Under the pieces are notes generated by a model that worked only from the letters and a program-made list of their open reading frames with translations, did not search any database and had not been told where the DNA came from. DNA of 63,732 bases, counting the filler, from Chrysochromulina tobinii (Eukaryota): assembly GCA_001275005.1 (NCBI GenBank). It is 5 parts of 5 records of this genome, joined end to end, with 100 filler letters (N's around TTAATTAATTAA, not from the genome) between each part and the next. Parts side by side here need not be neighbours in the genome. Positions count along the whole stretch, not along the records: positions 1 to 22,066 come from JWZX01001139.1; positions 22,167 to 29,755 come from JWZX01001140.1; positions 29,856 to 50,695 come from JWZX01001142.1; positions 50,796 to 61,504 come from JWZX01001143.1; 1 more part is not named here. One strand, 5' to 3'. Made by a program: the position numbers and the translations under genes. Each line of letters opens with the position of its first letter. The first letter of the stretch is position 1. Shown piece after piece: positions 1 through 61,300 of the stretch.

Positions 1-3000
1 GGGGCGGGGGCGAGGGCGGCGGCGGTCTGGGAGTTGGAGGTGAAAATCCACCTACGGGCGCGGGCGGGAGTGGCGGCGGTGTCGAAGGCGGTGGAGGAGA
101 TGGAGACGGAGGTGGCGGCGAGGGTGATGGCGGCGGTGGCGAGGGCGAGGGCGGCGGAGATGGAGGTGGCGGCGAGGGCGGCGGCGGACGAGGCGGTGAG
201 GAAGGCGGCGATGGAAGCGATGGCGGAGGGTCACCCGATGCACCGTGCTTGATCACGCGCACCATCGAGACGCACAGAGGCTGCGGAAGGCCCGATAGGT
301 CGAACGCTCGCACTTCGAAGTCAAAGGAGCGATTCGAGCCCAACGGCCGTACCGGTAGCTGCGAGGCCACAAATGTGACCGTCTTGAGCTGACCGTCGCC
401 CACTGTGCGGATCGGGAAGCCGACGAGCGTGGGCGCGCCACCCGCGGCGGCGGTGTGTGCCTGGGTGAGGCGAACTGAGCCGACAAGGACATCGAAGAAG
501 CTCACCTTGACGACAGCGCCCCGCAGCGGGCGCGGGGGGGAGAAGACGAAGGCACGGTCGAGTGTAAACCCGATGACTCCACGCGGCGCCGTTCGCGCGA
601 TCCAATCGTAGGGCGCGCCGCCGGCGGTACCCACGCCATCGGTGCCCCAAAAGGGCACCGAATTGCCTGAAGGCGTCTGCGTGATGCGCGCGTCGCGAAA
701 GGTGACTACGCCGTCGATCACAGTGGGGGGCTGATCGCGCTGGTACAGCCAACGCTCCATGTTTGCCACCGCACCCGCTCGTCTCAGATGCTCTAGCCAC
801 TCAAAATGCGTCGAGGCGAGGAAGCAAAAGGCGTCCGGCGCGTCCGCGACGGTGCGTCCGAGCTCGAGCGCCACATAGGCAAAGATGGAGGGGTTGACAA
901 TGGTGGCCGAGGCGAGGAGGTAGTTGACGCGCATCTGGAGCACGCGCATCGAGCTCATCAAGTACCGGTAAGGGAACGAAGCGATCGAGCCCCAGCGTGC
1001 GGTGCCGTTGAGGATGGGCGCCGTAGCGTTCCATGCGCCCCCGCGCTCTGCTGGCGAGTGCGTCATCCATTCGCTCGACCATTGTCCCTCATACTCTTCA
1101 TTCTCTTCGCCCAGCATCCCACCGCCCATATGGACGCCCGCCGTCTCGTTGAAGATGACGTACTCGTTCGCCCAGAAGCTCTCGAACGACTGGCTGCTGA
1201 ACAGGTGCGGCAGCTGATACCAGTAATGCTCGACGAAGCCGTTGCGAAAGCCAAAGCCGAGGGAGAGCCCATAGCGCGACTCGCCGCCCATGAGCACTTT
1301 AGACTCGACAGCCGCGCAGACATTCTTCCAAGCGTCGAGGCGCTGACGCACGTGAGGATAGACCAGAGTTCCGTTGATGGCATACGACGCGGGATCGTAG
1401 TTCGGGTCGTAGATCGGGTACGTCGGCCCCTTGGGCCCAATGTACTCATCGCCGTACGAAGAGGATGCGTAGCCCGCGTACATCACGACGACGGTGTCAT
1501 TCTGGCAGAGGCGGGTGGCTTGGAGCGCAGAAAGGAACGCAAGGTACCGTGAGTGGAAGTACGGATGAGCTGGGTCGTACGAGCCGCCCTCCTCAGAATT
1601 CTCAGTGTAGCGCGTGGTGAGGTTCCGACCCGCCAGGTAGGTCGGTGCGGACGGGATGTGTGAAGTCAGGATGCGCAGCTCCACCTTCCAGCCGCGCCGC
1701 GCGGCCTCGGCGACATTCGCATGGATCGGCGCGAAGTTGTACACCCCCTCGGCCGGCTCCAGCTGCTTCCACATAGCCCACATCGCGAAGACAGGCGTCA
1801 CAGTGAAGGGCATCGTGGTCGTGGGCGGGAGGGCCATGGCCGATGGGCCGCCAAAGGGCATTTCGCTGTCGGGCCACTGGCTGTTCCACGTCTTGGGTGG
1901 CATGGGCACGTAGCCAAAGCAGCGCTGCATCGCGACTAGTCCCAAAGGCGACGGCGCCATGTCGGGCGGCAGGCCCCAGTCGTAGCCGCGTACCTAATGA
2001 GGGAGGCAATCATCCTAATGAGGGGGCCATCGTCCTAATGAGGGGGGGCATAGGCCCCAATCGTAGCCTCGTACCGTCGTGTTCGGCGTGTCGTGCCACT
2101 GGTCGGGGACCACATTGGCATACGTCTGCGCCGCCTCGATGGCCGTGCAGCCATCGAAGGCGGATGCTTGGGCAAGCTGATCGTGACGCCCATGGCACGA
2201 AAAGTTGCCAAACCAGGCTGTTGGCCAAACCTCGTCTCCCGGATTGACCAGCAGAGTGTGCGGCGGCCACAATGGCGGCGGCGCCGGCGGCGACGGCGGC
2301 GGCGGCGGCGGAGCGGGCACCTGCTTTGCCCACGTCACGCCGCCCATCCAGTTGCCGTTGCCCACCCACATTGACATGCGCGGACACGTACCAAACGGCT
2401 GGCTATACGAGTATGAGTAAGACATCAGGTGGCACTCTCCGTTCCAGTACCCAAAGAAGGCGTAGGAACACGTGGCAGACGTGCGGCATGCCTCGCGGCA
2501 CAGCCACGGGTTCGGCGTCCCCGCTCGCGGCGTTTGACCCCGAAGGACGCCCGAGCCACCCGTGCTCGTCTGCGCGCCGCTGGGAAGAAAGTAGACGGTG
2601 ACGTGCGTGCCCGCTCCCGTGTGCGAGCCGGGCCAGTCGCACATACAGACGTTTACACCGTTGGGGCCGCAGGTCGCACCGCCGTTGTACGCCGGGAAGC
2701 CGTCTACTGTGCTCGCGACGCGGCCAGTCGGGGTACAGCCCGCAGCGCAGCCCGTCGCACTGGTAAGGATGCTCATCGTGAACTCCTGGGGGGGCATCGG
2801 GGGCGGCGGCGAGGGAGGCGGTGGCGTGGGCGGCGGCATGGGTACGTTCTTGACGAAGGTGATGCCCCCCTGCATCCCGCTGCCCGTCTGTGAGCCCACC
2901 CAATGACTCGCGCGCGGGCACGAGCCACCTCCCGCGATGTATGACACGTCCCACGAGAACAGGTGACAGAAGCCCGACCAATAGCCAAAGAATGCAAAGT

Positions 3001-3646: not shown

Positions 3647-6516
3647 ATGGCCATGCTCGCGTCTGTCACGGCCGCCCTTGGCGTTGGCCAGATGAACCCC
3701 ATCCCTGGCGGCTACCGAATCGGCAACGCCCTTCCCGGCTACGAAAGCAAGCAGTGGTCGTTCCGCGGCTCATTCTTCGAGGTCAGGACGGCCGAGATGG
3801 AAACGCGATACTCCGAAGTATTCTGGACCTCGCTGCCGGACGTGCCGCTGCCCGCGGACATTGTCGCCAAGTTCAAGGACAAGAATATTGTCATCTCTGG
3901 GTTCGAGGTAGACGTTAAGCGCATGAACAACAAGACGGGCGTGGAGGAGTCGGTGCCCGTTTTTGAGAGCTATAATCACCACTATGGGCCGGCGCTCGTG
4001 TCGTCGTATGCTGAGATGGATCGGGATGAATTCGGCCAGCCCACAGGCCCAAACCACGGGCATGGCAAGTCCATTCTGTTTCGTGTCAAGCCCGGGGCTA
4101 CCCCCCCACCCGACGCCAAACTCGTCGAGAACTTTGTGCACGGCAACGGGAACGAGCACCGCCAGATGTACCACGGCACCTCGGCAGGGTTCGGCCAGCT
4201 CATCTACTCGCCGGCGAACTTCTCGATGGTCGCGATGCAGATCAACACCAACTTCAACGGCTCGGGCATCCCCGGCGGCCCCCTGCCCCAATTCTCCCGG
4301 GAGCACGCGCCACCTGCTACCAAGTGGAATCCACTCTTTGAATGCCCTTGCACCTCGCGCATCTCGAAGCAGCTCGGCAGCTTGAGCTCGCAGCTCGGCG
4401 GCTCGTGCGCCAAGCTGCCCTATGCCGCGGCCGATTGCTTTGCCGGCGCAGCCCAGGCTTTTGGCGAGGCGACCCTCACCAAGAATGTCAGCGTCTCGTC
4501 TGCGGAGCTGTCGCCTGGATGCACGGTTGCGCGCGTGGCGGAGGGCAGCGACGACCTCGCGGTGACTTGGAATCAGAATCTGAAGTCAACGGTGCCTTGC
4601 AGCGGCCGCGGCGGCGGCGCTGTGACGAGCGCCGCGGGCCACACCAAGGACCTCGTGGACATGCGCGTCGAGGTCGACGCCATCGCAGCTTTGGTGACGA
4701 TCACATTGGCCGGCCCTTCGGCGGTGTGGTTTGGCGTCGGGTTCAACGCGTCGGCCATGCAAGACGAGCCGTACGCGATCATAGTAGAGGCGACGGACTC
4801 CGAGCCTCACATATCGGGCACCGTCTCTGAGCGCAAGCTCGCCGACCATGCGCCTGGGACTGCCCTGCCCCCCTCCATCAAGCTCATTAGCAGCTCGGTG
4901 AGCTCGGGAGTGAGGACATTGATTACCTCGGATGGCCTCTGTGATTGCCTCGGACTGCCACTGAGTGCGTCGGATGACCACTTGTGGCGTCTGATTGCAG
5001 GTGAGCTCTGGAGTGAGGACTGTGCTTCTCCAGCGCGAGCTTCGCGGCGCATCCCCGGACTATTACAGCTTCTCTCTCGCGAGCGCGACGATCCCGTTCA
5101 TCAACGCTGTGGGGAGCACGCCCAGCTTCCAGCAGCACAAGCAGCGCAACACCGCCACGCTTCGGCTCGTACCAACTTCGCCCGCACACCCAAGCTGCCT
5201 CTGCGCGGGAGCCGAAGGAACCATCGACGGCTACCACCTGAACGCGAACTGCGTCGGGGAGCCTCTGAGTGACCTCCTCTTGACCAACAACCCGACCTGC
5301 CAGGTGAGTACGTACGTCGGAGGCCTCGCATGCTGCCGCCACGGCACCTTCCTCCTCGATGCTGAGCAGGCTGTGCCGGAGTACGTCGACCGCACCTTCT
5401 TCCGCTTCCGATTCTACTACGAGGAGCTCCAGGTGCGATTGCCACTGATTGCCATTGATTGCCATTGCTTGCCATTGATTGCCATTGATTGCCATTGATT
5501 GCCATTGATTGCCATTGATTGCCATGGATTGCCATGGATTGCCATGGATTGCCATTGATTGCCATTGATTGCCATTGATTGCCATTGATTGCCATGGATT
5601 GCCATTGATTGCCATTGATTGCCATTGATTGCCATTGATTGCCATTGATTGCCATTGATTGCCATTGATTGCCATTGATTGCCATTGATTGCCATCAGAG
5701 CTCCAGGTGAGATTGCCACGGTTTGCGTCTGATGGCCACAAATTGCCACTGAGTGCCACTGAGTGCCACTGATTGCGTCGGATTGCCACAAATTGCCACT
5801 GAGAGCCGCCACGTGCATGCAGCCCACCACGCGCCCTATCTACCATGTCGAGTGGGCGGCCAACGGCTGCGACAGCGGCATCACAGGGCCCTCTTCCTTT
5901 CATTGCACGCACATCGAGTTCGACGTGATGCCGAATGCGAGCAGCACGACGTTCCAGCAGTCGTTCCAATCCACCTTTGCCGCGGGCATGATGCTTGCGG
6001 ACTCGTGCCCGATGACATCGTCGCAGTGCATGGATCGCTCTAAGGTGGGGCCTGGCGGCATCGAGCTGGTGATGGCGGCCGCTCACTGCCACGCGCCCAA
6101 CTGCATCCGTCAGGTGCGTATGACTGATGGCCACTGATGGCCACTGATGGCCACTGATGACTGATGACCATGAGCAGAGATGACTGATCGCCACTAATCG
6201 CCGTTGGTGGCCACTGATGGCCGCTAGTTGCATTGGCCACTGATGGCCGCTGATTGCATGCATGCAGGAGCTTTGGAATGTGGACACCAACGAGCTGCTC
6301 TGCGCGGGCGTACCGGTACATGGCGCGAGCGAGCAGCTGTACGACGAGGAGGGATACCTGTTCTCGCCACCCTGCCTGTGGGGAACCGACGAGGGCCTCA
6401 AGGCGCCGCCCAAGCTCGCGCTCAACACGACGCTGCGTATGGTAACCATCTTCGACAACCATTACTACCACGCTGGCCAGATGGGCATCTGGCAGATGAA
6501 GGCCGCGTTCGCTTGA
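3647..6516 (+). CDS. SURNod19-like / copper monooxygenase-like protein with an internal DOMON-like domain; 4 exons (introns 4898-5000, 5433-5822, 6114-6267)
   Basis: IVISGFEVDV...VPVFESYNHHY and GNGNEHR resemble SURNod19. VTITLAGPSAVWFGVGF is DOMON-like. C-terminal AAHCHAP...HAGQMG is an HxH...M copper-site pattern. Removing the three GT-AG introns joins the ORF fragments in frame. Confidence 0.65.
5437..5695 (+). repeat. Intronic decamer array (GATTGCCATT)n, ~25 units
   Basis: Directly visible tandem array inside intron 5433-5822. Confidence 0.95.
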
Positions 6517-12779: not shown

Positions 12780-13510
12780 GTCAGTACGTGCAGAGGTCCA
12801 CTGCCGTGCCGCAGGGGTCACCCTCTACCAGCGCCCTCTCCCGACACGCGATCTACCAAAGTTTTTATCTACGATCCGGCGCGCATGCCGGCGCGGCGAC
12901 GCCGATCGCGCCGCCAGGCCGGTGGCCGCGTATCACGGGCCGCAACGGGAGCTCGGCGTTTGAGATTGAGTGTGTCGAGACTCCGAGTGTCTGTGCCTGC
13001 GCGCTGTTGGAGCCGCTGTGGCGTGTGTGGACAACACGCAACTGCCGACGCTACTGTATACACTTAATGAGCCCCAGCACACAAACACCGACTCTGTCGT
13101 CAAGAATGGGATCGGTCCGCTGCTACACCGGCGCTAGCACGGCGCCTAGCAAGCCCAAATCAATAAGGACTTAAGGAGTGTTAGGAGTCGGTGTTGCGCC
13201 GCACGGCATGCGTCCGACCGCCGCAGTCACCCGCGCACCGTTCCGTGCTCTCCGCTGGAGGGCAGTGCCGCTCTATACGCACGACGTCTCCGTCTCTCTC
13301 TCATGATAGTTCCCCTCTCGCAACAAGCCCACGCGAGATGTGGGCACACGCCGTTCTGGGCACGCGAGTCTACAGCCCTACGCTCACTCAGGCAAGACGT
13401 TGACAAATCAATAAGTCATCATTCTAGAAGTCATTCGAGAGGAGGGCGTGATGATCATCGATGATGACCACTGATGATGACCATGGATGACCTCTTGATT
13501 AAGAAGTCGT

Positions 13511-14359
13511 TCAAGAAGAGGACGTGATGGCATTCGGCCTGATAGGCGACAAAGGCGCCGCGTTCGGATCCGGATCTGCAGCTCCGCCCTCCTTGCCCTT
13601 CCCTCGGCGCGAGTTGCTCCGGCCACCTTTGCCACTTCCACGGCCGCCACCGTCCTTGCCAGGAGTGTCGTCGTCCGACTCGTGCGGCATCGAAGACTTC
13701 GCCTCTGCTCGAGATGGGGCAGAGCCGTCAGGGAGATCACGTGGGAGATCGTCCTCGCCTCTTCTGCCCCCACCATTGCCGCCGCCCTTGCCTCGCCCCT
13801 TGCCCTTGCGACTGTCGCCCTCCTCGCCGCCACGAGGACTCTCAGCCTCAACACGGCTCTCAGTCCCAGCACCGCCAGCGCCAGCGCCAGTATCAGCGCG
13901 GCTGCCACCCTTGCTGGCGCTGCGACCGCCAGCCTTGCTCCTGGCATCAGATTTCGCATCGCGGCTCTTGCCATCGGGGCTGGCGCTCGCGTTCTTGCCA
14001 TCGGGGCTCGCGCCAGGGCCGCCAGAGCTGTCATTGCCCCCCTTTCCACCAATCCCACCTCCGCCTTTGCCACCCAGCTTGCTTTTTGCTTTGCCTCTGC
14101 CACTTTCAGCTTTGTCCCCTTCGCTCCCCACAACTCTCTCGAGCAGGGTGAAATAGCTCTTCTCCAGTGCCGCAAGCTTCTCGCCCTGCGTGCTGGTGGT
14201 GGCTTTGAAGCTGTTGACAGCTTCGGTGACATCGTCAAGCTGACGATCAACCCGCCGAGAGCGCGAGGAGGCAAGCTTCATGGTAGCGAGCAGCTTCTGC
14301 AGGTCCGCAATGCTCTTCGCTCCTGTCGCCGTTGGCTGAGACTGCACCATGGCGGCCAT
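13511..14359 (-). CDS. Hypothetical low-complexity G/K/S-rich protein with a short coiled coil
   Basis: ORF 13511-14788; the most plausible start is MAAMVQ at 14359. Confidence 0.4.
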   Translation of the reverse strand: MAAMVQSQPTATGAKSIADLQKLLATMKLASSRSRRVDRQLDDVTEAVNSFKATTSTQGEKLAALEKSYFTLLERVVGSEGDKAESGRGKAKSKLGGKGGGGIGGKGGNDSSGGPGASPDGKNASASPDGKSRDAKSDARSKAGGRSASKGGSRADTGAGAGGAGTESRVEAESPRGGEEGDSRKGKGRGKGGGNGGGRRGEDDLPRDLPDGSAPSRAEAKSSMPHESDDDTPGKDGGGRGSGKGGRSNSRRGKGKEGGAADPDPNAAPLSPIRPNAITSSS

Positions 14360-15195
14360 GTCAACTCGTGTGCGGCGCGCGGTGGCGGCGCCGCCCGCGT
14401 CGTGGAGCGGCGGTAGCGTGGATACCTGTGCGCGATCGTCCGCTCTTCCCGGGAAGTGTGAAGTCAAGTGACTCGACTTGAAGTGTGAACGGAACGCGAC
14501 ACACGTGTCGTCGGTGGCGCCGGGGAGGCGCGTCTGGCGCGCGAGGTGGCGAAGGATGGTCATGAACGTAGCCGCGAGCGCGCCGGTCGCATGGGGTTGG
14601 AGCTTGGGGGTCGGCAAGATAAGCAAATACACTACGCGCCGCAACCAAACCATGAACCAAACGTCGTCGTCGATGCCACATGTACCGGATGAATCGATGC
14701 ATATTGCATCTGATGATGAAGATGTGCAAACGAATGATCTCTCTCTCGATAACGATATAGTGCGGATGAATGCGGAGGACGGGTGCACGGGTCCGAAACG
14801 CGAAAGGGCCTAAGGGGAGGAAGCTCCAGAACTCTCGCCTTGAACCAGCGTACCCGCCTTCGTGTCGTCGTATGACGCGGCGGCTCGAATGGCAAAGCCC
14901 AGTTACGACCCCGGCGCGGCCCTGAACAGCTACAACACAAACATGCGTGCGTACACCGCCGTCCTCCTTTACGCTTTCGTTTCCCTTTTGGGCCGATCTT
15001 TGGCCCCAGACCCAGTGTTATCGCTGGGCCGCTCGGCATCGCACCCCTCTGGCCCTCTGCTCTGCCGCTCACACGTCGCACTCTCATGGGCCCTATGCAG
15101 ACAAAGGCGCCGGTCACGCGAGGCGCCCGGGCGTCGTGGCATCATCATGGGCACCCTTGAGCCCTCCTCACGACGGCCGTCGCGTCGGCCAGTGC

Positions 15196-18114
15196 TCACG
15201 CGGCGAGCTTCTTGGCCGCGGCGACCACCTCCGGCGAGAGGGTGATCGTGGTCGCCTTGTCATTGTACGTGGCGAGCTGGTCGAAGTTGAGGTACCGGTA
15301 CGTGTCCGCGGCCGACGCGTCGATCTTCTTCCAGGCCTCGAGGTACTCGTCGGGCGTGGGCAGCTTGCCCTTGATGGCCGCGAGCGCCGCAAGCTCAGCC
15401 GAGGCGAGGAAGACATCGGCGCCGTTGCCCAGGCGGTTGGGAAAGTTGCGAGTGGACGTGGAGACGACTTTGGCCTTGTCCGCGACGCGCGCCTGGTTGC
15501 CCATGCAGAGCGAGCAACCGGGCATCTCGGTACGCGCGCCCGCCTTGCCATAGATGGAGTAGTAGCCCTCCGCGGTGAGCTGGGCGGCGTCCATCTTGGT
15601 TGGGGGGGACACCCAGAGGCGCGTGGGCAGCTGCCCCTTGAACGAGTCGAGCATCTTGCCCGCGGCGCGGAAATGGCCGATGTTGGTCATACACGAGCCG
15701 ATGAAGACCTCGTCGATCTTGGAGCCAGCAATCGTGGGATCCGAAAGGAGCCGTGCGTCATCGGGATCGTTCGGGCAGCACAGGATGGGCTCCTTGAGCT
15801 GGTCCATGTTGATCTCGATCGTCTCGTAGTACCTGAGGAGGGGCGCACGCAGTGCTCATCAGCGCCATCAGTGGCAATCATCAATGGCCATCAGTACCGC
15901 CTTCCTGAGCTTCGGCCATCAGTGGCAATCATCAGAGGCAATCATCAGTCATCTACGTACTTGGCCGCCTTGTCCGCCTTCATGAGCTTCGGCTTAGCGA
16001 GCCACTCCTCCATGTTGGCGATACGGCGCTCGAGCGTACGCCGGTCGCCGTAGCCCTCGGCGATCATCCACTTGAGCATCACTACGTTCGAGGTCAGGTA
16101 CTCGGAAATCGGCGCCTGGTCGAGCGAGATTGTGCAGCCGGCCGCAGAGCGCTCCGCGGACGCATCCGAGAGCTCGAAGGCCTGCTCGCACTTGAGGTGC
16201 TCCAGGCCCTCGATCTCGAGGATGCGGCCCGAGAAGACGTTGATCTTGCCCTTCTTCTCGACGGTGAGCAGCCCGCGCTGGCGCGCCGCGTACGGGATCG
16301 CGTGCACGAGGTCGCGCAGGGTGATGCCCGGCTGCATCGTGCCAGTGAACTTGACGAGCACGGACTCGGGCATGTCGAGGGGCATTGTGCCGGTGGCGGC
16401 GGCGAAGGCGACGAGGCCCGAACCGGCGGGGAAGGAGATGCCGATCGGGAAGCGCGTGTGCGAGTCGCCGCCCGTGCCCACCGTGTCCGGGAGCAGCATG
16501 CGGTTGAGCCACGAGTGGATGATGCCGTCGCCAGGGCGCAGCGAGACGCCGCCGCGGTTCATGATGAAGTCGGGGAGCGTGTGGTGTGTCTTGACGTCGA
16601 CAGGCTTGGGGTACGCGGCGGTGTGGCAGAAGGACTGCATCACGAGGTCGGCCGAGAAGCCGAGGCAGGCGAGGTCCTTGAGCTCATCGCGCGTCATCGG
16701 GCCGGTCGTATCCTGCGAGCCTACGGTCGTCATGAGCGGCTCGCAGTACTCGCCAGGGGATACTCCAGGGCGGCCGCATGCCTTGCCGACCATCTTCTGA
16801 GCGAGTGTGTAGCCCGCGGGCGTGGGGGGCGCGTCGCCGAGCGAGCGGAAGACTGTCGTCGCCGGCAGATCGAGTGCCGTGCGCGCGCGCGACGTGAGGC
16901 CGCGTCCGATGATAAGTGGGATGCGCCCACCAGCGCGCACCTCGTCAAAGATGACCTGGGTCTTCACCTCGAACTTGGCGAGCACCTGATGAGGGAGGCC
17001 ATCAGTGGTCATCAAAGGCAATCAGATGAGGGCGAGGGTGGTCTCGAGCTTTGGCGAGCACCTCGCCGGTCGTGTGCGACTTCGCGACGCCCTCGTACGG
17101 GTAGATGTCGACGACGTCGTTCATGTGCATCTTGCTCACGTCCATCTCGATCGGCAGCGCGCCTGCGTCCTGCATCGTGTTGAAGAAGATGGGGGCGATC
17201 TTGCTACCGATGCAGATGCCGCCGCCGCGCTTGTTCGGCACGTAGGGCAGGTCGTCACCCATGTACCACAGGACAGAGTTGGTGGCCGACTTGCGCGACG
17301 AGCCGGTGCCGACCACGTCACCCACGTACGCGAGCGGGAAGCCCTTCTTCATCGCCTCGTCGATCTGTGCCTTGGTGCCGTTCTCCTTGTCGGTGACGCC
17401 CTTGATGCCGTCGCGCGGGTGCTTGAGCATAGCGAGAGCGTGCAGCGGGATATCGGGGCGCGACCAGGCGTCAGGCGCCGGCGAAAGGTCGTCGGTGTTG
17501 GTCTCGCCCGTCACCTTGAACACGGTGAACGTTATCTTCTTCGCCACCTCCGGACGCGACGTGAACCACTCCGCGTCCGCCCACGACTTCATGACGCGCT
17601 TGGCAGCGGCATTGCCCTTCTTGGCCTTGTCCTGAACGTCGTGGAAGGAATCGAAGACGAGGATGGTCTTGGACAGCGCGTCGGCCGCGATCTCGGCGAG
17701 GTCCGGCTTGTCGAGCGCGTCGACGAGAGGCTGGATGTTGTAGCCGCCCTGCATGGTGCCGAGCAGGAAGACGGCATCCTTCTGCGAGATGAGCGGCGAC
17801 GTGGCGTCGCCCTTGGCGACGGCGGCGAGGAAGCCCGCCTTGACGTAGGCGGCCTCGTCGACGCCGGGTGGCACGCGCATCTTGAGCAGCTCGAGCAGCT
17901 CCTTGCCCTCATCCGCCGGCGGCTTCTGGAGCAGCTCCACGAGCGCTGCCGTCTTGGCCGCATCGAGCGGCTTGGGCACGATGCCCATCGCGGCGCGCTC
18001 AGCCACCTCTTTCTTGTAGTTGGTCATGAAGGTCGACGCCATGCGCACGGCGCCGAGGCGCACCGCCGGCGCCGAAGCACGGGCCTGCACGAGGCGCGAC
18101 GCCCGAGACAGCAT
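15196..18114 (-). CDS. acnB: Aconitate hydratase B (bacterial-type AcnB) with a mitochondrial-type transit peptide; 3 exons (introns 16986-17061, 15833-15960)
   Basis: [84 protein letters not shown]-terminus [27 protein letters not shown] is R/S/A-rich. Both introns splice in frame. Confidence 0.95.
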
Positions 18115-18327: not shown

Positions 18328-18420
18328 CATGTCCAAGTCAAGTCAAGTCAAGTCAAGTCAAGTCAAGTCAGTTGACTTGACTTGACTTGACTTGACTTGA
18401 CTTGACTTGACTCATGTCCA
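18328..18420. mobile_element. Foldback microsatellite insertion (AGTCA)7-GT-(TGACT)8 flanked by an 8-bp direct repeat CATGTCCA
   Basis: Perfect inverted pentamer arrays at 18336-18412; CATGTCCA at 18328-18335 and 18413-18420. Confidence 0.65.
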
Positions 18421-24172: not shown

Positions 24173-25951
24173 TTACCTTTTGAGCGTGCTCGCGTACACG
24201 CCCACAAAGGCCACCAGGAACAGGAGCCCTGCCCAGGCGAGGCCCTGCATCCAGACCGACGGACGGTGCGCCTTGGGAAAGGAACTGCGCATCACGAGCC
24301 AAAACGTGACGGCGCCGAAGGCAGGCGCGGCGACGAACGAGAGGGTGGTGGCCATGTCGATGAGCGCGGGCAGGCTGCCGGGGAAGAGCACGAGGAGAAG
24401 GTAGGAGGAGACGGTGGTGAAAGCGAGGGAGACTGCGTACGCGCACTGCTGGGTGTTCGGCTCGATTGTGATGACTGTGACGGAAGTGATGCTGACGTCG
24501 AGGGCCGCGCCGTCGGATGGTTTGCAATTGAAGAGTGCCTGCAGCGAGCGCGAGATGATGCGGGCGTAGGCGTCGAGGATTGTGATGCACGTACCGAGCA
24601 TCGCGCACGCCGCGGATGTAGCGACCACTGGCCAGGCCCATGCGCCCAGGCTGCGGCTATACAGGTCCACGACCGCCGCGGCGAGCGCCGCCGAGCCGTT
24701 GGGCAGCACCTGATGAGGGAGGTCATCAGAGCCAATCAAGAGCCATCAACGGGAAGGCCGTTGGGAAGCACACCTCTCCCGGAGTCGTGATGAGGGAGGT
24801 CATCAGATCAAATCAACAGCCAAGCAAGAGGAGGGCCGTTCACACCTCTCCCGAGTCGTGAAGCAGCAGCACGCCGAGCGCGAGGAAAGCGAGCGCGAGC
24901 GCCGCCGTGAGCGCATAGCCCGCCCCAAACTCAAGGAGCGACTCCCTGAGGCTAGGGTGCAGGCCGCTCGTCCGATACCTACGCGGAGAGACGCCATCAA
25001 GAGTCATCAGAGGGCGAGGGAGATGAAGAGAGAGAGAGAGAGAGCGAGGCCATCGAGAGCCATCAGGAGTCATCAAGGCGCGCGCACCGCTCGACCGCCC
25101 AGAGGGAGCTCGCAATCGAGCGTCATCAGTGGCAATCAGGAGTCATCAAGGCGCGCGCACCGCTCGACCGCCCAGAGGGAGCTCGCAATCGAGCCTCATC
25201 AGTGGCAATCAGTGGCAATCAGTCGTACGCACCGCTCGACCGCCCAGAGGGAGCTCGCAATTGAGCCTGTGTCGACCGGGATCGGCATCCACCCCATCAG
25301 AGCCACCAAGAAACGGATGCCGTCCTCGTCCCATGGGTCCGCTTCCACAGCCGCTTCCACAGCTGCTGGCGCCTCGGCGTCGACCGGTGCGGCGCTGCCG
25401 TTGGCTGCGGTGGAGGCGACGGCGCGGGGCGTGCGTGGGGCGGCGACGAGCGCGGCGCCGAGCGCGGCGAGCGTGCAGACGGTGAGGAGCACGGTGATGG
25501 CCTTAGTGATGCGATCAAGCATTGAGAAGCGCCCACTTAGCAGCACGAGAGAGCAAACTAGGTAGAGCACCGCGACAGTCGAGCCCGGGCCGAACATACC
25601 GTCCTCTCCTAGCGAAAGGAGGTTGTCGATAAAGGCGCCGGTCGTGAGGGCCACGGCAGCGGTGATGACAGGGCACGAGGCGACTTCGAAGATCGTGAGC
25701 AGCATGATGGCGCAGCGACCGAGCGAACAATAGCCATCGACGAGTGAGGTGCCCGTCACGTTGGCATATCGCGAAGAGAACTCAAAGAATGGATACTTGA
25801 ACAAATTCGATGCGCAGATGGCCCACGTGTTTGCCCAGCCGTACTTGGCTCCCGAGCGCGTGCTCTGGACGAGGTGCGAGACGCCGATGGCTGTGCTGGC
25901 AAACATGACTCCTGGGCCAAGCAGCTTGCATGCTCGATCAAACCGTGACAT
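24173..25951 (-). CDS. NRAMP/MntH-like divalent metal transporter (prokaryote-like subfamily); 3 exons (introns 24979-25232, 24710-24845)
   Basis: LGPGVMFASTAIGVSHLVQSTRSGAKYGW, NLFKYPFFEFSSRYA, LVALMGWMPIP, LIDMATTLSFVAAP; exons join in frame. Confidence 0.8.
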
Positions 25952-26274: not shown

Positions 26275-28084
26275 TCACCCCCACCGCGATCTACGCGCTG
26301 CTGCGCCCCCCTCGCTTGCGGCCCCGTGCGCCGCAGGGGTGTCTCGCGCGGGCGGGAAGCGACGTCGCCTATTCGAATTCGTCACCGCGTCGTCCCGGGC
26401 GTCGTTGGCGGCAGCGTGCGCCCCTCTGCTCGATCGACGCGAAACGCTCCACACGACAGCGCCCTGATGACGCATGCGAGGCTCGAGCAGCTCGAGCACG
26501 TCCTTGAAGCCGTTCGCATGCAAGACGCACGGCACTTCGCCGGTTGGCCGGAAGGCAAGCCGACCGTCCGGACGTAACGTCACATCCTTTTGGCAACAGT
26601 GGCAATCAGTGGGCATCAGTGGCAATCAGTGGCACTCAGTCCGGACGTAACGTCACGTCCTTTTGGCAACAGTGGTCATCCGTGGCACTCAGTGGCAATC
26701 AGTGGTAATTCACCTCGGCTCCTAGCGAGTCCAAATGGAGGAACAAGGTGGCAATCAGTGGCAATCAGTGGCAATCAGTGGTAATTCACCTCGGCTCCGA
26801 GCGAGTCCAAATGGAGGAACAAGGTGCCGTTAGTGTCGAGGGCATGCGAGGGCGCGTGCCTACGCGAGGCGAGCGCGGCTTGCAGGCATGCCTATGTGCG
26901 AAATGGCGCCGTGGTGAGCACTTGCATGCGAAGGCGCGGGTGCGGGCCCGCGGGCGGCGAACGCGGCCTGCAGGCATGTCTATGTGCGATGATGGCGCCG
27001 TGGTGAGCACTCGCCTGGTCCTCGACGGCGCACGGCACCGGGCGTGTGAAGGTGCGCGGCGGTCGGCATGACGTGCACGGATCGAGTTGGTAGCCGCCCA
27101 CCTGATGAGGGAGGCAATCAGAGGCGCAATCAGAGGCGCAATCAGAGACGCAATCAGCATGCAAAGCACGGATCGAGTTGGTAGCCGCCCACCTGATGAG
27201 GGATGCAATCAGCATGCAATGCACGGATCAAGCGGGTAGCTGCCCACCTCGCCCTCGAATGCACAACACGGGAAGCGTGGGGACGCTTGACGCAACGAGC
27301 GCGCGAGGGCCTCAAACCCCGCGAGGGTACCTGATGAGGGAGGCAATCACCCGCACTCAGTGGCAATCCCATGCAATCCGAGGGCCTCAATCCCCGCGAG
27401 GGTACCCATCACGAGACCCTAATTAGGATGGCAATCAAGAGCCATCAAGAGTCATCAAGACTCGCGAGCACACCCATCACGAGACCCTAATTGGATGGCA
27501 ATCAAGTCATCAAGGCTCGCGAGCGCACCCATCACAAGCCCCGAATTAGGATAGTACTGGCGTGTGCGGCGTGCCGTGTACTTGACCTTCCACGGCAGCC
27601 GTGGGTCGGGTCCGAAGGGATCGTGCGCGTCGCGGGGCAGCGGATACCATTTGCGCTCGCCGCCAACCACGAGCGGCGCGCCGCCAAAGCGCGTCCGGAA
27701 TCGCTCCTGCAGCTCATCGGCATCGCACTGGAAGATGACATCGGTGTCGGAGAGGAGCGCGAGCGAGGAGGCTGTGCGCGAGTGCTGCTGCTGCTGGTCC
27801 TGGAGGCCGTCGCGCTGCTGCGGGCCCTGGCTGCCGCGCCGCCACGCTTCGAGCATCCAGTCATACTTGTAGCACGCGTTCGCACTCCACGGCGCTCGGT
27901 AGCAGCACTCGAGCGCCTCGCGCTGGGCGGTGACGTTGATCACGACGCGCCGCGGCGGCGCGCCGACGGTGATCTGCTCCGAGGCCCAGCCGGCATGCGC
28001 GCGGTAGAGCGTCTTGGCCGGCGGCTCGTTCCAGGCGTCGGCTCGGTTGGTGTGCAAGAAGACGTCAAGGGCGCTCGGCTTCAT
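26275..28084 (-). CDS. PLOD-type GT-A glycosyltransferase-like protein; 5 exons (introns 27331-27528, 27102-27247, 26892-27014 GC-AG, 26587-26789)
   Basis: SDTDVIF, LVVGGERKWYP, YPNSGLVMG|T, EDQ|A, LDTNGTLF, VLHANG: the motif order of PLOD glycosyltransferase domains appears after splicing. Confidence 0.7.
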
Positions 28085-48385: not shown

Positions 48386-50695
48386 CTACCGCCCAACGTC
48401 TAGCTTCCAGGCTGTCCAGCGCCAAGCTTGAAGTGCCGCGTGAAGCCGCAGGCCACGCACGCCCGCGAGGGCACGGTGGATGCAGTCGTCGCGCTGCTCG
48501 GCCGCCAGCTGCTCCGCGACCGTGTGCCACGACTCCGCCTCGCCACGGAAGTGCGCGAGCTCCGCATGCTGTCGCTCGAGGGCAGCACGCGCCGCGCTGA
48601 CCTGCTGGCTGGCCATGGCGCGCAGGGTGGCCTCGCGCGTCTCGGACCACACGTAGAGCTGGGTGAGGCGCCCGCCTATGCGCTCGGCCTCGGCATGCAA
48701 GGCCGTCAGCAGCAGCTGCGGCGCGTGCTGCCGCTCGAAGACTATGCGTGCCTGATGGAGGCAATCAGAGGCAATCAGAGGCAATCAGAGGCAATCAGAG
48801 GCACTCAGAGGCAATCAGGGGCAATCAGTGGCAATCAGGAGGCAATCAGAGGACTATGCGTGCCTGCTCGATGAGCGCCTCAGAGGCAATCAGAGGCCAT
48901 CAGAGGCCATCAGGAGGCCATCAGGAGGCCATCAGGAGGCAATTAACGACACTCGCCTGCTCGATGAGTGGCTTGACTACGCTCGGCGCGGCAAAGGCGG
49001 TTTTCAACGGCAGCTCGTGCTCCGCGTGCGCGTCCGGCGGGGCCGCCGCCTCCAAGGGGTAGCGCGGCCGCAGCGCCACGGCTGTCTCACTGTCCAGCAC
49101 GGCGGCGACGGCGGCGGTGGCGGCCGCGCTCCGTGCGGCCAGCGCGGCGGCCTCAGGCGCAGCGGAAGCTGCGGCGGCGACGGCGGCGGTGGCGGCCGCT
49201 TCCCGTGCGGCCGCCAGCTGCAAGCGTAGCGCTTCGACCTGCGATCTCCACACCGCCTCGCGTCGGCGTAGCTCCTCGGCTTCGTCTGCGAGGCATCCAA
49301 GCTCGCGTGCCTGCCTCGCCGCCGCCTCGGCCTGCCTCGCCGCCGCCTCGGCTTCGACGCTCGTCTGATGGGCATGGCGCAGAGACAGCTCTGCCTCGAG
49401 CTCTGACCGACGCGCCGTCAGCTCCGAACGGAGTGCATCCTGCCTTGCCGACCACTCGGACTCGGCCGCCGCGTGCCGCGCCATAAGGGCGCCCTCTCGC
49501 TCGGCAACAGCGGCCTCGCGAGCAAGCAGCGCCGCTTGCCGCTGCATCACTGCCGTCATCGCCGCCGCGGCGTCGGGGGAGGCGGCCGCAGCGGAGGCGA
49601 CGGCAACGGAGGAGGAGGCATCGGAGGCGGCTCGGTTGGAGGTGCCACTGTTGAGAGCGCTGTTGTGAGCGCTGGCATCGGAGCAGGCACTGGCCGCCGC
49701 GCGTGCCGCAGCGAGCGCCTCCGTCTGCTTCCATAGCTCTCCTTCGAGTGTGTGGAGCGCCTCGAGTTGCTGCTGCTGCTCGAGTAGCCGGCGCGACTGC
49801 ACGGCCAGCAGCTGGCCCTGCGCTTCCCTCTGGGCGGCGTGCGCGTGCGCGCGCTGCGTGGCCTCGAGCAGCAGCTCGCTCTGCGTTGAGAGCTGTTTGC
49901 TCTGCGTGACCAGCTGCTCGCCCTGCTTCTCGAGCCGGTGCGTGAGCTCCGCGATCTGGCTCGATCTCGCCTCGATCTGGCCCACGAGCACCGAGTGCTG
50001 CTCCGCCCACGACGCGAGCTGCGCTTCGCACTCGCGCACGCGCACGCGCAGCGCGGCCGCGGCCTCGCGAGCCTCGGCCGCCTCGGCCCGCTCCTTTTGG
50101 CTCTCCAGGGCGCGCTCGTCGTCCTGCTGCCTCTGCTGCTGCTGCCTCTGCTGCTCCTCCTGCTGCAGCTGCTGCTTGTGTTCGGCCTGCTCCCGCCGCC
50201 AAACCTCAACCGCCCTTTGCGCCTCGTGCCGCTCGCGCCGTAGCCTCTCGCCCGCCTCGGCCGCATCCGCGGCCTGCGCCGCCACCTGCGCGGCCCGCTG
50301 CTCGATCTCGTCCCGCCGCGCCTGAAGCGCGCGCTCGGTTTCGTCCCGCCGCGCCTCGAGAGTGCTCGCCTCCGCGCGCATGGCGAGCAGCTGCGCACGC
50401 ACCGTCTCCTCCTGTGAATGGAGGCTCTGCAGATTTCGTTCGATGGACGCGTGCTGCGACGCGAGCGCCGTCGCGTGCGCCGCGCTTTGCGCCTCGAGCG
50501 CCGCCTCACGCCGCCCGGCCGCCGCCTCACGCGCCTCAAGAGCGGCCTCACGCGCACTCGCTTCGCTCTCTCGGCAGTTGAGGTCGTGCTCTCGCCGCGC
50601 ACACTCGGCCGCCCGCGACGCCGCCGCAGACTCGGCTATACGCGCCGCTGCCATGGCGGCCGCCGCCCCCGCCGCCCCCCCCCCCGCCCCCGCCG
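48386..50695 (-). CDS. Coiled-coil protein, 5'-truncated; GC-AG intron 48752-48956
   Basis: E/Q/A/R-rich ORF; PLIEQ|ARIVFE joins in frame after splicing. Confidence 0.65.
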
Positions 50696-50795
50696 NNNNN
50701 NNNNNNNNNNNNNNNNNNNNNNNNNNNNNNNNNNNNNNNTTAATTAATTAANNNNNNNNNNNNNNNNNNNNNNNNNNNNNNNNNNNNNNNNNNNN

Positions 50796-53700
50796 AAGTC
50801 GGTGACGGCGCGTGCGTGCGCGGTGCGCGGCCGTCGGTCGAGCAAGGCCGCCTCACCAAAGGCCGGTAGCCCCCCCGGCGTCGCGGCCGCGCCACCGACC
50901 GCGGGCACCGGCCCTAATGTGGCCAGTAACTGCCGTCCACGTGTGAGTTGCACCGCCCCCTGCAGGCACCCAGGCAGGCACCGAGGATGGCACTCAGAGA
51001 GGCCCTCAGTGGTAATTAGGGAGGCACTCAGAGGTAATTATAGGGAGGCACCGAGGAGGGCACTCAGAGAGGCCCTCAGAGGTAGTTATAGGGAGGCACT
51101 CAGAGGTGATACTGAGGTGATTAGGGAGGCACTCAGAGGTAATTAGGGAGGCACTCAGAGGTGATTAGGGATGGAGGCACTCAGAGGTAATTAGGGAGGC
51201 ACTCAAAGAGGCCATCGCACCTGCAGCACCCAGTAGACGCAGTCGGCCGGGTTGCCAAGGTCGAAGAGCACCTCGCCTGCAAGCACCTCGCGTAGCTCGA
51301 GCAAGCAGACGAACTCGCGCACCGAGCGGCTAGGGAGGTCGCGGAACAGGTCGGTGTGAACGAGCTCGGCCTCGACCATCGTCTCAAACAGCTTCCGCCG
51401 TACCTGGTGCACTCAGATGCAATCCGATGCACTCAGATTCAATCAGCACAGGAGATCTTCACAGGCAGCTGCTGACGAACCTTGGCCACAGGGAAGCACT
51501 CAGAGCTGATTAGGGAGGCACTCAGAGCTGACGAACCTTGGCCACACCGTCGGGGCGTAGGTGGAGGTGAAGCTCATCGGCATTGAATGTGAGCACCTCG
51601 ACATCGTCCGAACAGCTCATCGTCGAGGCACGTGGCTTCCCCAGCAGCGCCTGCCGGCAATCAGCATGCACACATGATGAGGGAGGCAATCAGCATGCAC
51701 TCAGTAGGAGGTCCCCAGCTGGCGCGATTGAGAGAGGCACTCAGAAAGCCATCATCAGGCCATCATCAGGCCATCATCAGGCCATCATCAGGCCATCATC
51801 AGGCCATCATCAGGCCATCATCAGGCCATCATCAGGCCATCAGAAAGCCATCAGAAAGCCATCATCATCAGGCCATCAGCGGGCCATGATCGGCCATGCT
51901 TGGAAACGTACTTCAGTCCCGAAGAGGACATATTCACAGCCCGCGCCACGAGGACACACCACCGCGCGACGCTCGCGCCCCTTGCGCTTCTCCTGGAGGA
52001 TGCGTGTGGGCAGAGGGGAGCGCCGTTGTGAGCACTTGCATGCAGCCGTAGCGTCACGTGGAGGGCCTCGCTCACCTGGAGGATGCGTGGGCCAGGGGGC
52101 GGCGGTATCCCAATGTCATCTCCAAGACCAGCTGCTACCTGCCGCTCCTCGAGCTTGCCTGCGGTGAGGACGTAGAATGCCTTCGCCACCGCCCCTTCGC
52201 GATAGAGCGCCGCGTATCTGCATGCAATCAGAGGGCCATCAGAGGGCATCAGAGGGCATCCGAGAGCATCCGAGGGCATCCGAGGGCATCAGAAGTACCG
52301 CGCGTGTCGGCGGCGCCGACCGGCCGATGAGAGCATCGCGAGCTGCCGAGTGTCAAGCTCATGAAAGAAGTCACACGTCTTGAGCGCCTCGGAGGTCTTG
52401 TGCACGTCAAGGGCGACTTTGGCCAAGCGAGCAACGTCGACAACGTCACGACCAGCCATGCTGGCACGGTATACCTCCTACCAACGGCATGCAATCAGAC
52501 GGCATGCAATCAGACGGCATGCAATCAGACGGCATGCAATCAGACGGCCATCGGATGCAATTAAAGTCAATCAGGATGCAATTTAAGGCAATCAGGATGC
52601 AATTCGATGCGATCAGGATGCGATCAGAGGCGATCAGATGCGACCGAGTGCACTCTGAGATGTCATGCTGGCACGGCGAGCAGGTGTAAGCAGGCCATCA
52701 GGCCTCGCATGCCACCCGGCCTGATTGATTGCCTCTGATTGCCTCTGATAGCCTCTGATTGCCTCTGATTGCCTCCGATCGCATGCCACCCAGCCTGATT
52801 GATTGCCTCTGATTGCCTCTGATTGCCTCCGATCGCATGCCACCCGGCCTGATTGATTGCCTCTGATTGCCTCTGATTGCCTCTGATTGCCTCCGCTCGC
52901 ATGCCACCCGTCCGTCCCATCAGATTGCCTCTGATTGCCATCAGGCCATCCCATGCAAACAAAACGCACCTGTCGGTAGAGCCGCACGGCCTCCCACATG
53001 ACGCGCCTCACCTGATGAGGGAGTTCATCAGAGGCTCATCAGTGGCAATCATATGGTTCCACAGCCTCCCACACGGCGCGCCTCACCTTGCGCCGCAGCC
53101 AGTCGCGCCGCCCGGGCGACACCGACGGTGGTTCGCTCGCAATCGCCCGCACTCGCCCGCACTCGATCTCGATCTCGATCTCGACGGTTTCGTCAGATGG
53201 CGTCTCGGCCCGCGGAAGCGCTGTGTTGGGCACCCCCCAGTGCATCCCCACGGCATCGAAGCCAGCCTCAGCGCCGTAGTTGGGCTCCTGCAGCGGAGCG
53301 CCGTGTTGGGCAGCATCGTGCGGGTACGCGCCGTGTTGGGCATCGCCGTAGTTGGGCTCCTGCTCGGCAGCGCCACTGCAGCCGCCTCCGCCACAGTCGT
53401 AACCGCCACCTGCTCCCCCGGCGCTCACGACGGCGCTCACGATACCCGCCGCGCTCTCCACGGCGCCGCTGCCCGGTACGGCGCCGCCCGATACGGCGCC
53501 CATGCTCCACGCGAAGGCGGGATGCTCTGCCGCCGCCGCAAGCGCCGTGGCGAGCGCCGCCTCCTGGGCCGCCGCCTCGTAGGCAGCGCCGTGCTGGGCA
53601 CGCGGAGAGCGCGCGGGAGGGCTCGTAATTGCCGACGTCATCAACTCAGTGAGGGAGAGCTCCGAGTCGAGCGCCGTGTCGGGCGCATCCTCGGGCGGCG

Positions 53701-54928: not shown

Positions 54929-54967
<39 letters not shown>

Positions 54968-58341: not shown

Positions 58342-61300
58342 TCAGTGCGGAAGGATGTCTTCAACGTCAAGGGAGAGCGACTCGAGATCATCGGAGAGAT
58401 TGTCGTGCGAGGGAGAGAGCAGGGGCTCGCGTGCGGCCACCGGCCGGACAGCCGGCCGTGTGAAGGCCGCGGGGGGCGCCCGACACGACGCGCGCCCGCC
58501 GCCGCCGCCGCTGCCACCGGCGATGCCGCCACCGGCGGCACCTCGAGCACGGGCGATGCCTATGTTGTCGTTACCGTCCTCCTCCTCCAGATCCGGCAGA
58601 TCGCCGATCTCGGTGTCCTCGCGATCTGCCGCGGAGGAGATTGGTTTCGTCATGATGGGTTTCGTCATGATGGGTTTCGTCATGGTGACCATCGGGGTGG
58701 CCGTTGGCGCCGCCGCGGATGAGGACGCAGCCCCCCTCGCGCCGCCGCCGAGGCCGGCAAGGCGGTTGCCTCCCAGTCCTGTGGGAAGTCCTGTGGGAAG
58801 TCCTGTGGAATTGCCGTAGAGGGAGCTAGTGGGATTCCCCTCCTCGGAGGAAAACGAGTCCGCCGCGTCGCCATACCCACCGCCGCCGCCGCCGCCGTAG
58901 GACGAGAGGACAGCACCGAAGCCAGCCCTCTGCATCGCACTCGACGCCGAGGGGTCGCCGGGCGCAGGGGTCGGAGCGGTTGGAGCGGGGACCTCGACGG
59001 GTGCCAGCCCGCCGCCAAGCCCTCCGCCGCCGCCACGGCGCCCCAGGCGCGCCCCGCCACCCAGCCCGCCGCCCCCAAGCCCGCCCCCCCCAACCCCGCC
59101 GCCGAAGCTGCCAGTGCCGCCACCGACACTGCCTCGGTTGACGAAACTCGCGCCGGAGGACGCAGCTGGCGCTGCGGCGGGCGGATGCGCCTCCAGCGGC
59201 TGCTGCATGCGCGCCGTGGCGGGCGCCGCCGGCTTGGGCGTGCCTTCGTTGGAAGTTTCCTCGAAGGACTCCGAGTACTCATCCGCGTCGTCCTGAGCGG
59301 AGTCGACCTCCTGGATCGGCGCCGTCCTGAGCAGCGTCGTCTTGGGCGGCGTGCGAACCGCCGAGGCGGATGACGTGGCGGATGACGTGGCGGATGACGC
59401 GGCGGCGGCGGCGCTGGTGGCGGCGGCGGGTGCGGCGCGCGCCGTGGTGAGCGCCGGAGGAGGCGCCGCGATGGCGCCCGCCGTGGTGAGGCGCCGTGGT
59501 GAGCGCCCCGGCGACGGGCGGTAGGGCGAGTCGGCCGACAGGTCGAGATCGAGCTCCGACGCCACGTCCGAGCCGCCGTAGCTCGCCTCGAGCAGATCAT
59601 CACCACCGGCGTGCCGCCCATCACGGCGCCCCGCAGACGGCGACGTGCGCGGATGCGGCTGCGGTGGCTGTGCCGCGCCCATCACGGCGCCCATACGGTG
59701 GCGGCCGTGGCCAGCGGCGCCGCGGATGGCGGTGGCCTCGCGTGAGGCGTTGCCAGGAGGGGATCCGAGACCCATGCCCGCACGCGCGCCCATTCGGCCG
59801 ACCGGCTGGCCTGCAGCAGCAGCGGCGGCGCCAGCAGCGGCGCCAGCGCCAGCACCACCGAGCGGGCCCGCTGCCAGCGCCGCGGCGGACGGCGCAGGGA
59901 GACGCGCCGTGGCGGGCGCCGCCGGCTTGGGCGTGCCTTCGTTAGAAGTTTCCTCGAAGGACTCCGAGTACTCATCCGCGTCGTCCTGAGCGAGCAGCAC
60001 CTCGGGGAGCGGCTGGCCGGGTTGTGGCAGCACGCTCTCGTTCAGAAACTGGGCGGCCGCGCGCTGGTACTCGGTGGCCTTCGCGCCGGTCGCGGGCGGC
60101 ACAAGCGCCGAGTTGAGCAGCGTACACAGCGCGGAGCGCGCGAGGCCGCCCACCTGATGAGGGAGGCCATCAGAGCTCATCAGTCGCATTCAGTCGCAAT
60201 CAGCGCGGAGCGCGCGAGGCCGCCCACCTTGCTCAGCCCGTGCAGGTACCTGAGAGAGAGAGAGAGGGCGAGGCGCCGTGGTGAGCACGTGCATGCATGG
60301 CAGGCCATCCGAGGCAATCCACGTACTGCACGAGGCGCCGTGGTGAGCGCGTGCATGCATGGCAGGACATCCGAGGCAATCCACGTATGCATGAGGCGCC
60401 GTGGTGAGCGCGTGCATGCATGGCAGGCCATCAGAGGCAATCCACGTACTGCATGAGGCTTCCGAAGAGCCGCCACTCTCCCGGCCCGACCGCCGCACGC
60501 AGCGCGTCCAGCGTGAGCGCCGCCTGGCAATAATACTCGTCGCCAACCTGATGAGGGAGGCCATCAGAGCTCATCAGTCGCAATCAGTCGCAATCAGTCG
60601 CAATCAGTCGCAATCATACTCGTCGCCAACCTTGACGTAGCTGTCGGTGCGCAGGTCGAAGCATTTGAACTTGTCGAGCTCTTCCCGCCCAAACTGCAGC
60701 CGCGTTCGGAGCGCCGTCGCGAGCGCGCCGTTGCTCACCTCCTTGCCCGCCGCCGGTCTCGTCAAACCCGCCTTCACCCACTTGGCGCCGAGCGGCACGT
60801 CCAGAAAGGCGGGCGGCAGCAGAGCGACAGGCCAGCTCATCACGAGAGCGCGCAGGGCATGCGCGCACCTGTGGGGAGAGGGGAGGGGGGCGCGCCGTGG
60901 TGAGCACTTGCATGCAAGGCAGCTCATCACGAGAGCGCGCAGGGCATGCGCGCACTGTGTGGGCGTGAGGGCTCGCAAGCCTCCCGCGCCGTCTCGGCGC
61001 CATAGCTCGAGCGCGCGCAAATGCTCCTGGCGCGCGCTCGGGGGCAGCGCCTGCGAGGAAGGGGCGTCATGGTGAGCGCGTGCATGCATGGCAGGCCATC
61101 AGTGGCACTCCACGTACTGCACGAGGCGTCGTGGTGAGCGCGTGCATGCAAGGCAGCTCATCAGTGGCACTTCACGAACCTGAGAGGCGGTGCGCCACGA
61201 CTGGACCACCTGTGGGGAAAGGGGAGGGGCGCGCCGTGATGAGCACGGGAGTGGACGCGCCGTGATGAGCACTTGCATGCAGGGAGGGAGGGCGATGCGC

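Follow-up and report, generated by a model that had tools for sequence, protein, structure and literature searches.

Duplicate-plus-filler introns in Chrysochromulina tobinii and their possible origin by local copying

How does an intron come to begin with a near-perfect copy of the exon that follows it? The question is raised by a 63,732-nucleotide (nt) stretch of the genome of the alga Chrysochromulina tobinii (assembly GCA_001275005.1; five contigs joined by N linkers, with a G+C content of 64%; hereafter the window), for which an initial annotation had named nine intervals in unrelated genes as introns of one kind: each starts with a duplicate of the next exon, continues into short repeats (the filler) and mostly ends in a stereotyped acceptor (the cassette). 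The duplicate-bearing segments are real, spliced introns, and their layout is probably the product of local copying between introns and exons, guided by microhomology.

Exon copies at intron starts and their splicing

The exon-copy-first layout is present in all nine named intervals, which lie on four of the five contigs, and the donor GT is indeed supplied by a long duplicate of the exon that varies from intron to intron. The acceptor is as recurrent as had been claimed, with GATKGCCTCCCTCATCAG matched 16 times at no more than three mismatches and 10 times at no more than one (0.09 expected). The body described for them, filler followed by cassette, fits most of the nine and fails for 4898-5000, which has no cassette, and for 60869-60955, which belongs to a second family. 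This family is marked by TGCATGCAAGTGCTCACCACGGCG before a pyrimidine tract and CACAG (nine matches in the window versus 0 expected), and its word sites are at 26870-27012, 52015-52075 and 60250-61380 (-). In some places a duplicate-plus-cassette unit forms the inner segment of a larger intron, as 27331-27405 does within 27331-27528. The introns and related units of the window are:

1994..2074 (-), predicted intron: 23-nt copy of the next exon (21 match), stacked cassette variants, end CCTCCCTCATTAG; removal takes the open frame from 581 to 1049 amino acids
4898..5000 (+), predicted intron: 20-nt copy (19 match) and filler, cassette-free, end TGATTGCAG; removal extends the open frame
5433..5822 (+), predicted intron with inferred boundaries: a 10-mer filler repeated in 26 copies; the upstream exon end and donor copied internally
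13425..13530 (+), non-intron outcome spanning the stop codon of gene 13511-14360 (-): filler enclosed by a diverged duplicate of about 28 nt
15833..15960 (-), aconitase B intron 2: 4-nt copy GTAC, internal upstream-exon copy, cassette-like end
16986..17061 (-), aconitase B intron 1: 11-nt exact copy, filler and cassette
24710..24771 (-), duplicate unit in the region of the permease introns: 15-nt copy (14 match), filler and cassette; thin RNA cover
27102..27192 (-), second stacked unit: 27-nt exact copy, filler and cassette; absent from an RNA contig
27193..27247 (-), first stacked unit, 55 nt: retained in RNA contigs of runs X18 and X15, giving an in-frame stop
27331..27528 (-), single intron: two copies of the upstream exon end plus donor, 27-nt next-exon copy, filler, cassette; RNA joints in two runs
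29069..29178 (+), intron: 26-nt copy (24 match), filler and cassette; RNA joints
33146..33210 (+), predicted intron in an EF-hand protein gene: exact copy of only 8 nt, two cassette copies; frame from 1115 to 1549
48752..48863 (-), predicted unit: GC-starting 12-nt copy and filler, cassette-like end
52726..52939 (+), antisense filler block, read from sequence, within an intron of a minus-strand gene
53012..53086 (-), intron: 27-nt copy (24 match), filler and cassette; RNA contigs bear the exon version
60154..60227 (-), intron: 27-nt exact copy; last 35 nt identical (46/50) to the intron at 60548; RNA joint
60250..60449 (-), family-2 intron: three internal repeats, 4-nt copy GTAC; RNA joint in two of four runs
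60548..60630 (-), intron: 15-nt exact copy (21 nt with one mismatch), filler and cassette; RNA joint
60869..60955 (-), family-2 intron (TGCATGCAAGTGCTCACCACGGCG...CCCACAG): 36-nt exact copy; RNA joint
61210..61314 (-), family-2 unit: 24-nt copy (23 match), part of a longer intron region with repeats

Exact RNA joints were found for four of the nine named introns. The intron at 29069-29178 was skipped exactly in three of three RNA runs, while a DNA contig passes through it; the joint of 60154-60227 was seen in two of four runs, and those of 60548-60630 and 60869-60955 in one of four each. A fifth, 53012-53086, fits indirectly, as two RNA contigs hold the exon version of the copy (three differences), consistent with splicing. 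The lake runs X19-X21, which contain almost no aconitase words, were left out of the comparison. The claim that splicing restores the coding sequence also held: removing 16986-17061 and 15833-15960 yields 904 of the 904 residues of the NCBI aconitase KOO34665.1, and removal lengthens the open frame at 1994, 4898 and 33146, the frame test being uninformative for the introns at 53012 and 60869, whose lengths are multiples of three. The full aconitase identity marks the source as this freshwater-type haptophyte or an indistinguishable strain. The aconitase gene itself (15100-18114, minus strand) is a nuclear gene of the bacterial aconitase B type with an N-terminal extension resembling a targeting peptide.

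Retention in RNA and assembly artefact, two of the outcomes named beforehand as fatal to the proposal, are not what the data show. Repeat-rich segments within short-read contigs invite the suspicion of artefact, and array lengths do vary between assemblies (L017/L074, two of the metagenome loci described below); yet RNA skips the segments exactly, a DNA contig crosses 29069-29178, and independent assemblies differing by 1-4% bear the same duplicate introns, which leaves an artefact or retained sequence hardly credible. In RNA of the stack at 27102-27247, the 91-nt unit is lost and the 55-nt unit kept (two runs), and removal of both gives a 380-residue frame; the pattern suggests that units are spliced one at a time (recursive splicing) or that an intron needs at least some 55-60 nt.

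Two further rows concern how duplications fall relative to genes. The internal copy of upstream exon end and donor in 5433-5822 indicates a duplication across the 5' boundary of that intron. At 13425-13530, the filler is antisense to gene 13511-14360 (-), and the sequence offers no GT/GC-AG register.

Duplicates, cassettes and inserts across metagenome loci

Metagenome contigs were scanned for the cassette, yielding at least 150 stretches that were kept as 146 loci (810 kb including overlaps; numbered with the prefix L). Loci and window together hold at least 564 cassette matches (413 non-redundant), and 221 terminal acceptors remained once inner copies, near-duplicates and matches close to a locus end had been set aside. 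A duplicate was defined as an upstream copy of the next exon that starts with GT or GC and scores at least 10, the null being obtained by shuffling exons among introns. Duplicates were found at 89 of the 221 terminal cassette introns, versus 0.9 under the null (at a score of 8, 106 versus 6.0). They are 11-60 nt long (median 23), 41 of the 89 are perfect and overall divergence is 4.2%. GT or GC directly follows the cassette in 199 of the 221, versus about 18% of coding dinucleotides. The excess extends to family-2 introns (17 of 66, versus 0.2; the 66 include miscalled acceptors) and to introns ending in GCATGCAG (6 of 17, versus 0.05). The cassette was not found in the viral_contigs set. The duplicate-plus-cassette introns are real and genome-wide, and extrapolation from this sample to the 59 Mb given for the genome in the accessible part of its description (PMC4580454) suggests that there are thousands of them.

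The two copies do not always agree at the splice site. In 4 of the 89, the intron copy starts with GT and the exon copy with GC, and in two the reverse holds; after a few cassettes, GA or GG stands in place of GT or GC and is matched by an upstream copy (L020 at 9815, L012 at 10409), which hints at non-canonical donors.

Between duplicate and exon, the non-exon insert of the 89 introns measures 28-254 nt. Its filler consists of degenerate 10-mers in 149 unit variants, and exact sharing is short: the mean shared 3' end is 11.5 nt, and 30 nt or more are shared by 0.15% of 23,966 between-contig pairs. In only 3 of the 89 joins does the insert begin flush with the edge of a filler unit, none of the 89 inserts contains an A or T run of 6, and complementarity between the insert ends is weak (5.3 of 10 matches, versus 4.6 in shuffles). 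Several word resemblances were noted. Read on the opposite strand, the cassette end CTCATCAG becomes the filler word CTGATGAG, which occurs in 20 of the 221 introns; an ancestral inverted repeat may have left this mark, or the two may form a small hairpin. We take CTGATGAG to recall hammerhead core or box C/D motifs, as a resemblance only, and the filler repeats read like multimers of CTGAT, a branch-point word. P0209, an aconitase homolog from a related alga, carries an in-frame insert NPNPNPNP encoded by CCTAAC-type repeats, possibly an intron filled with telomere-like or branch-point repeats.

Elsewhere in the window, inverted CAAGT/TTGAC pentamer arrays occupy intergenic DNA at 18334-18412, and the same pentamer run lies upstream of genes in L002/L004. 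At 22167-23379 (+) lie four coding repeats, each about 306 nt long; ankyrin repeats are fused to a histone deacetylase domain in one gene at 43760-46518 (+), and the intron-free contig at 61605-63732 has a different look and is possibly part of a mobile element.

Local copying, renewal of old introns and other origins

The 3' parts of these introns are shared locally. For 19.9 of 123 introns, the closest 3' match in the whole set lies in a same-strand neighbour no more than 3 kb away, versus 1.6 expected and a permutation maximum of 7.2, and neighbours share identical stretches of 52 nt in L038 and 62 nt in L065, as does the pair 60154/60548 of the window. Exon starts are more alike in sharing pairs (4.56 versus 3.50 of 7 nt, p 0.0004; 16 non-independent pairs), as expected if return to the target is guided by the exon start. 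In addition, the last bases of the duplicate were compared with the usual left context of the filler, with other positions in the same exons as null: microhomology at the join averages 2.29 nt over the 38 of 89 joins scored, those at which the duplicate passes directly into a common filler word, versus 0.51 (maximum 1.0 in 2000 draws).

Three cases bear directly on intron-free target sites. In L051, one 101-nt intron, whose end is at 10612, opens with a copy of the exon that follows it, and the whole 101 nt, exon tag included, recurs 2,868 nt away between non-homologous flanks, with TCGGCAAGC common at the left end. The exon tag gives the direction of copying, and the second site shows no remnant of an older intron; this pair was the sole clear case when the loci were searched systematically for exon tags derived from another place in the same locus. 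In L132, a 27-nt duplicate with a neighbour's 3' end has no clean GT/GC-AG register and stands at a site that is uninterrupted in the homolog L099; this insert looks to sit in a gene fragment, and no other paralog pair among the loci offered a comparable intron site. L013 has a 48-nt in-frame insert of antisense filler. Such rare antisense inserts favour a DNA template, at least sometimes.

Splicing, duplicates, shared 3' parts and microhomology, all of them observed, together lead us to regard as probable a process of microhomology-guided local copying, which yields a duplication with a templated insert, followed by selection for GT/GC...AG. A break or stalled strand in an exon would pair by 1-6 nt with the filler repeats of a nearby intron, synthesis would run through the AG of that donor intron, often one of the same gene, and the strand would then re-pair at the original site at an upstream G(T/C), 11-60 bases back, so that the intervening sequence is duplicated. 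Selection would retain products that have a usable GT/GC donor in the duplicate or that fall inside an intron. An intron-free target site would give a new intron, an existing 3' boundary a stacked unit, and later deletion between the direct repeats would either renew the intron, its old 5' end being exchanged, or delete it precisely. The template may be DNA or the gene's own pre-mRNA.

Stacks are indeed part of the picture. Among the 89 duplicates, 23 lie behind another cassette as inner units; stacked units at one site differ in duplicate length (L020, L131, L094, L107), and a few stacks begin with a donor that is no exon copy (L138, L104). Copies of the upstream exon end plus donor are common as well, so that duplication across both boundaries of existing introns is frequent. 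Were the sequence between repeats deleted, one intron beginning with a duplicate would remain of a stack. AG precedes 28 of the 66 outer duplicates, versus 5% of coding GT sites, and 38 of the 66 have no upstream AG.

The age of the positions was approached through public calls of open reading frames (ORFs) on genomic contigs, used as a proxy for intron presence in relatives (prefix P). At aconitase intron 1, P0002 (38-kb contig), P0006/P0007 and P0020 (69-77% identity) read through, as do P0151 and P0209 at intron 2. P0149 appeared to be a close relative that does not have intron 1 and was rejected as a likely chimeric contig (70% identity in one half, 100% in the other). The intron of L006 in the prolyl-tRNA synthetase (ProRS) gene, which has a 23-nt duplicate, is read through by P0268 and P0300.

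Several observations weigh against local copying as a source of new introns. The closest ProRS relative, P0267/P0400 (88% over the region searched), carries an intron whose end falls at the same residue, and the closest genomic relative at aconitase intron 1, P0003 (81%), breaks at the site or 9 nt after it; to judge from these alignments, both positions may be old. P0267/P0400 does not have the second intron of the ProRS gene, and its shared position is possibly a parallel gain at CAG|GT. Presence/absence polymorphism was seen neither in the allele pairs L002/L004, L008/L047 and L088/L135 nor in any of the 13 population ORFs that reach aconitase intron 1. The sample was chosen, among the matches listed, by the cassette pattern itself, microhomology was unscorable at 51 of the 89 joins, and no enzyme was identified for the copying process. 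Neighbouring filler runs within 1.5 kb share orientation in 241 of 249 pairs, and the sequence after the cassette reads as sense coding in 140 of 187 cases, antisense in 6 and neither in 41 (a scorer that called 102 of 120 coding pieces sense in a benchmark). A blind DNA process should leave many extragenic copies; the scarcity of non-intron and antisense copies is the main unexplained point and makes a pre-mRNA template acting in cis possible.

Could the positions then all be old, for example dating from an ancient Introner burst at G(T/C) sites, with bodies rewritten by tandem duplication over the 3' boundary, inter-repeat deletion and gene conversion between neighbouring introns, and with hardly any new position? 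The inner units, some of them behind a donor that copies no exon (L138, L104), agree with this, as do the ProRS position common to the closest relative (and possibly the aconitase one), the polymorphism not seen in the alleles and ORFs compared, and the AG before outer duplicates, which fits deletion through AG|GT. That AG enrichment equally fits donor selection, however, and the alike exon starts of sharing pairs are not needed for conversion through the cassette; moreover, the second L051 intron is made wholly of another intron, and the L132 and L013 inserts lie at intron-free sites. Renewal as the whole story is unlikely. As a part of it, renewal is favoured by the ProRS comparison, and some duplications appear to renew older introns, while from L051, L132, L013 and the absence in distant relatives we infer gain. 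The term 'intron-generating' in the initial annotation is only partly earned: those few cases point to new sites, but neither polymorphism nor the closest ProRS relative supports it; its suggested ortholog comparison came out likewise divided, the introns being absent from more distant relatives and the ProRS position shared with the closest one.

Insertion of foreign or templated sequence was also considered. Retrotransposition of LINE-mobilised elements gives variable duplications, one fixed end and microhomology at the other. Insertion of a short non-autonomous RNA, either SINE-like or derived from excised intron ends, by target-primed reverse transcription would match the variable duplicate length, the single fixed end with microhomology opposite, and the strong sense and genic bias; against it stand three different fixed ends, a source often within the same gene, the 149 filler variants, the missing A or T runs and the existence of antisense and off-register inserts, and we hold this origin to be doubtful, more so than pure renewal. 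An Introner of the DNA-transposon type, with short inverted ends (CTGATG...CATCAG) and a variable target duplication of unusually great length, is very improbable. Its appeal lies in the CTCATCAG complementarity, in terminal matches slightly above shuffles and in a donor taken from the duplicate with an acceptor from the element, the layout of Symbiodinium and Polarella class 4/5 Introners; the insert, however, starts at the putative end in 3 of 89, CTGATGAG is present in 8 of 89 units, bodies are not near-identical and duplicates are 11-60 nt instead of 3-8. For current events this origin is largely refuted, though such an element could be the ancestor of the cassette. The initial annotation was right that these are no classical Introners, given their dissimilar bodies, duplicate lengths and unfixed insert start. 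Of the two origins it offered, the repair-like one fits, and telomerase- or reverse transcriptase-like addition from one fixed template is unsupported in view of three 3' families, the filler variants, microhomology joins that are not fixed and 3' parts shared with neighbouring introns of the same gene. A telomerase-added insert was separately rejected, the filler being degenerate and variable where exact repeats would be looked for (the C. tobinii telomere repeat itself was not determined).

Known intron-gain systems and what the introns mean

Microhomology-guided local copying combines traits of several described routes, compared here on the accessible parts of the sources cited. Introns of Daphnia pulex attributed to staggered double-strand-break repair have repeats of 4-12 bp, AT-rich inserts and no known donor (PMC4202315; PMC3443670). 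They share the direct repeat in the intron end and adjacent exon, which by the Daphnia-type measure exceeds background here (89/221 versus 0.9), and the repeated internal duplications of young Daphnia introns are a further likeness; unlike in Daphnia, the repeats here are 11-60 nt and the insert can be recognised as the 3' portion of a different intron, in many cases one of the same gene. Introners of Symbiodinium and of Polarella (classes 4/5 and 6/8/10) combine duplications of constant length (4 or 8 nt) with inverted repeats and near-identical bodies (10.1101/2020.10.14.339549; 10.1101/2022.06.06.494994), none of which is found in the C. tobinii introns, which resemble them in a donor from the target duplicate, an acceptor brought in, unchanged coding and G-starting targets. 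The Introner of a marine Chrysochromulina makes a 4-bp duplication with opposite polarity (10.1101/2022.06.06.494994); its family consensus, which was not compared, might overlap the cassette. As in the tandem genomic duplication described by Rogers, an exon duplication supplies a splice site, and as in intron transposition an existing intron supplies ready-made signals (PMC3443670). The Rogers introns, however, are pure exon copies that need AG|GT, whereas AG is missing before 38 of 66 outer duplicates here and a different intron provides the acceptor. Transposition by reverse splicing transfers entire introns and makes no long duplicates (PMC3443670). Micromonas introner elements, explained by an R-loop reverse-splicing model, show the same genic sense bias and clustered insertions, but are near-identical whole-intron copies, cleanly inserted, with no long duplicates or repeat filler (PMC4540971). 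In the accessible part of the report on Replitrons, no link to the C. tobinii introns was found (PMC10288648).

The literature search returned no description of C. tobinii duplicate-plus-filler introns, although unseen supplements may bear on the point. The accessible text of the genome paper mentions introns once (PMC4580454), and as far as the available part of PMC12130899 goes, its dataset lists C. tobinii with 0 Introner families, after a curation that dropped satellite-driven ones. The introns thus appear to be undescribed, and to be a variant of known intron-gain routes.

The source of a new intron's splice signals is an old open question, and for introns born of repair a donor can seldom be traced. 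The C. tobinii introns let donor intron, target, duplicate and microhomology be examined side by side, hundreds of times over, in a cultured species whose DNA and RNA data are public. Two cautions follow for other genomes: a long 'target duplication' at an intron can postdate the intron position, and screens that discard satellite-like introns miss such systems. For C. tobinii itself, the duplicates are a likely source of wrong gene models, since RNA aligns equally well at either copy. A bolder form of local copying, to which we give tentative credence only, is a self-propagating, transposase-free gain in which existing introns bud off new ones into other exons of the gene, through template switching at microhomologies and possibly on the gene's pre-mRNA, on a scale of thousands of introns, the same repeats also allowing precise loss or renewal. 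If true, this would be a genome-scale cycle of intron birth and death, invisible to searches for Introners.

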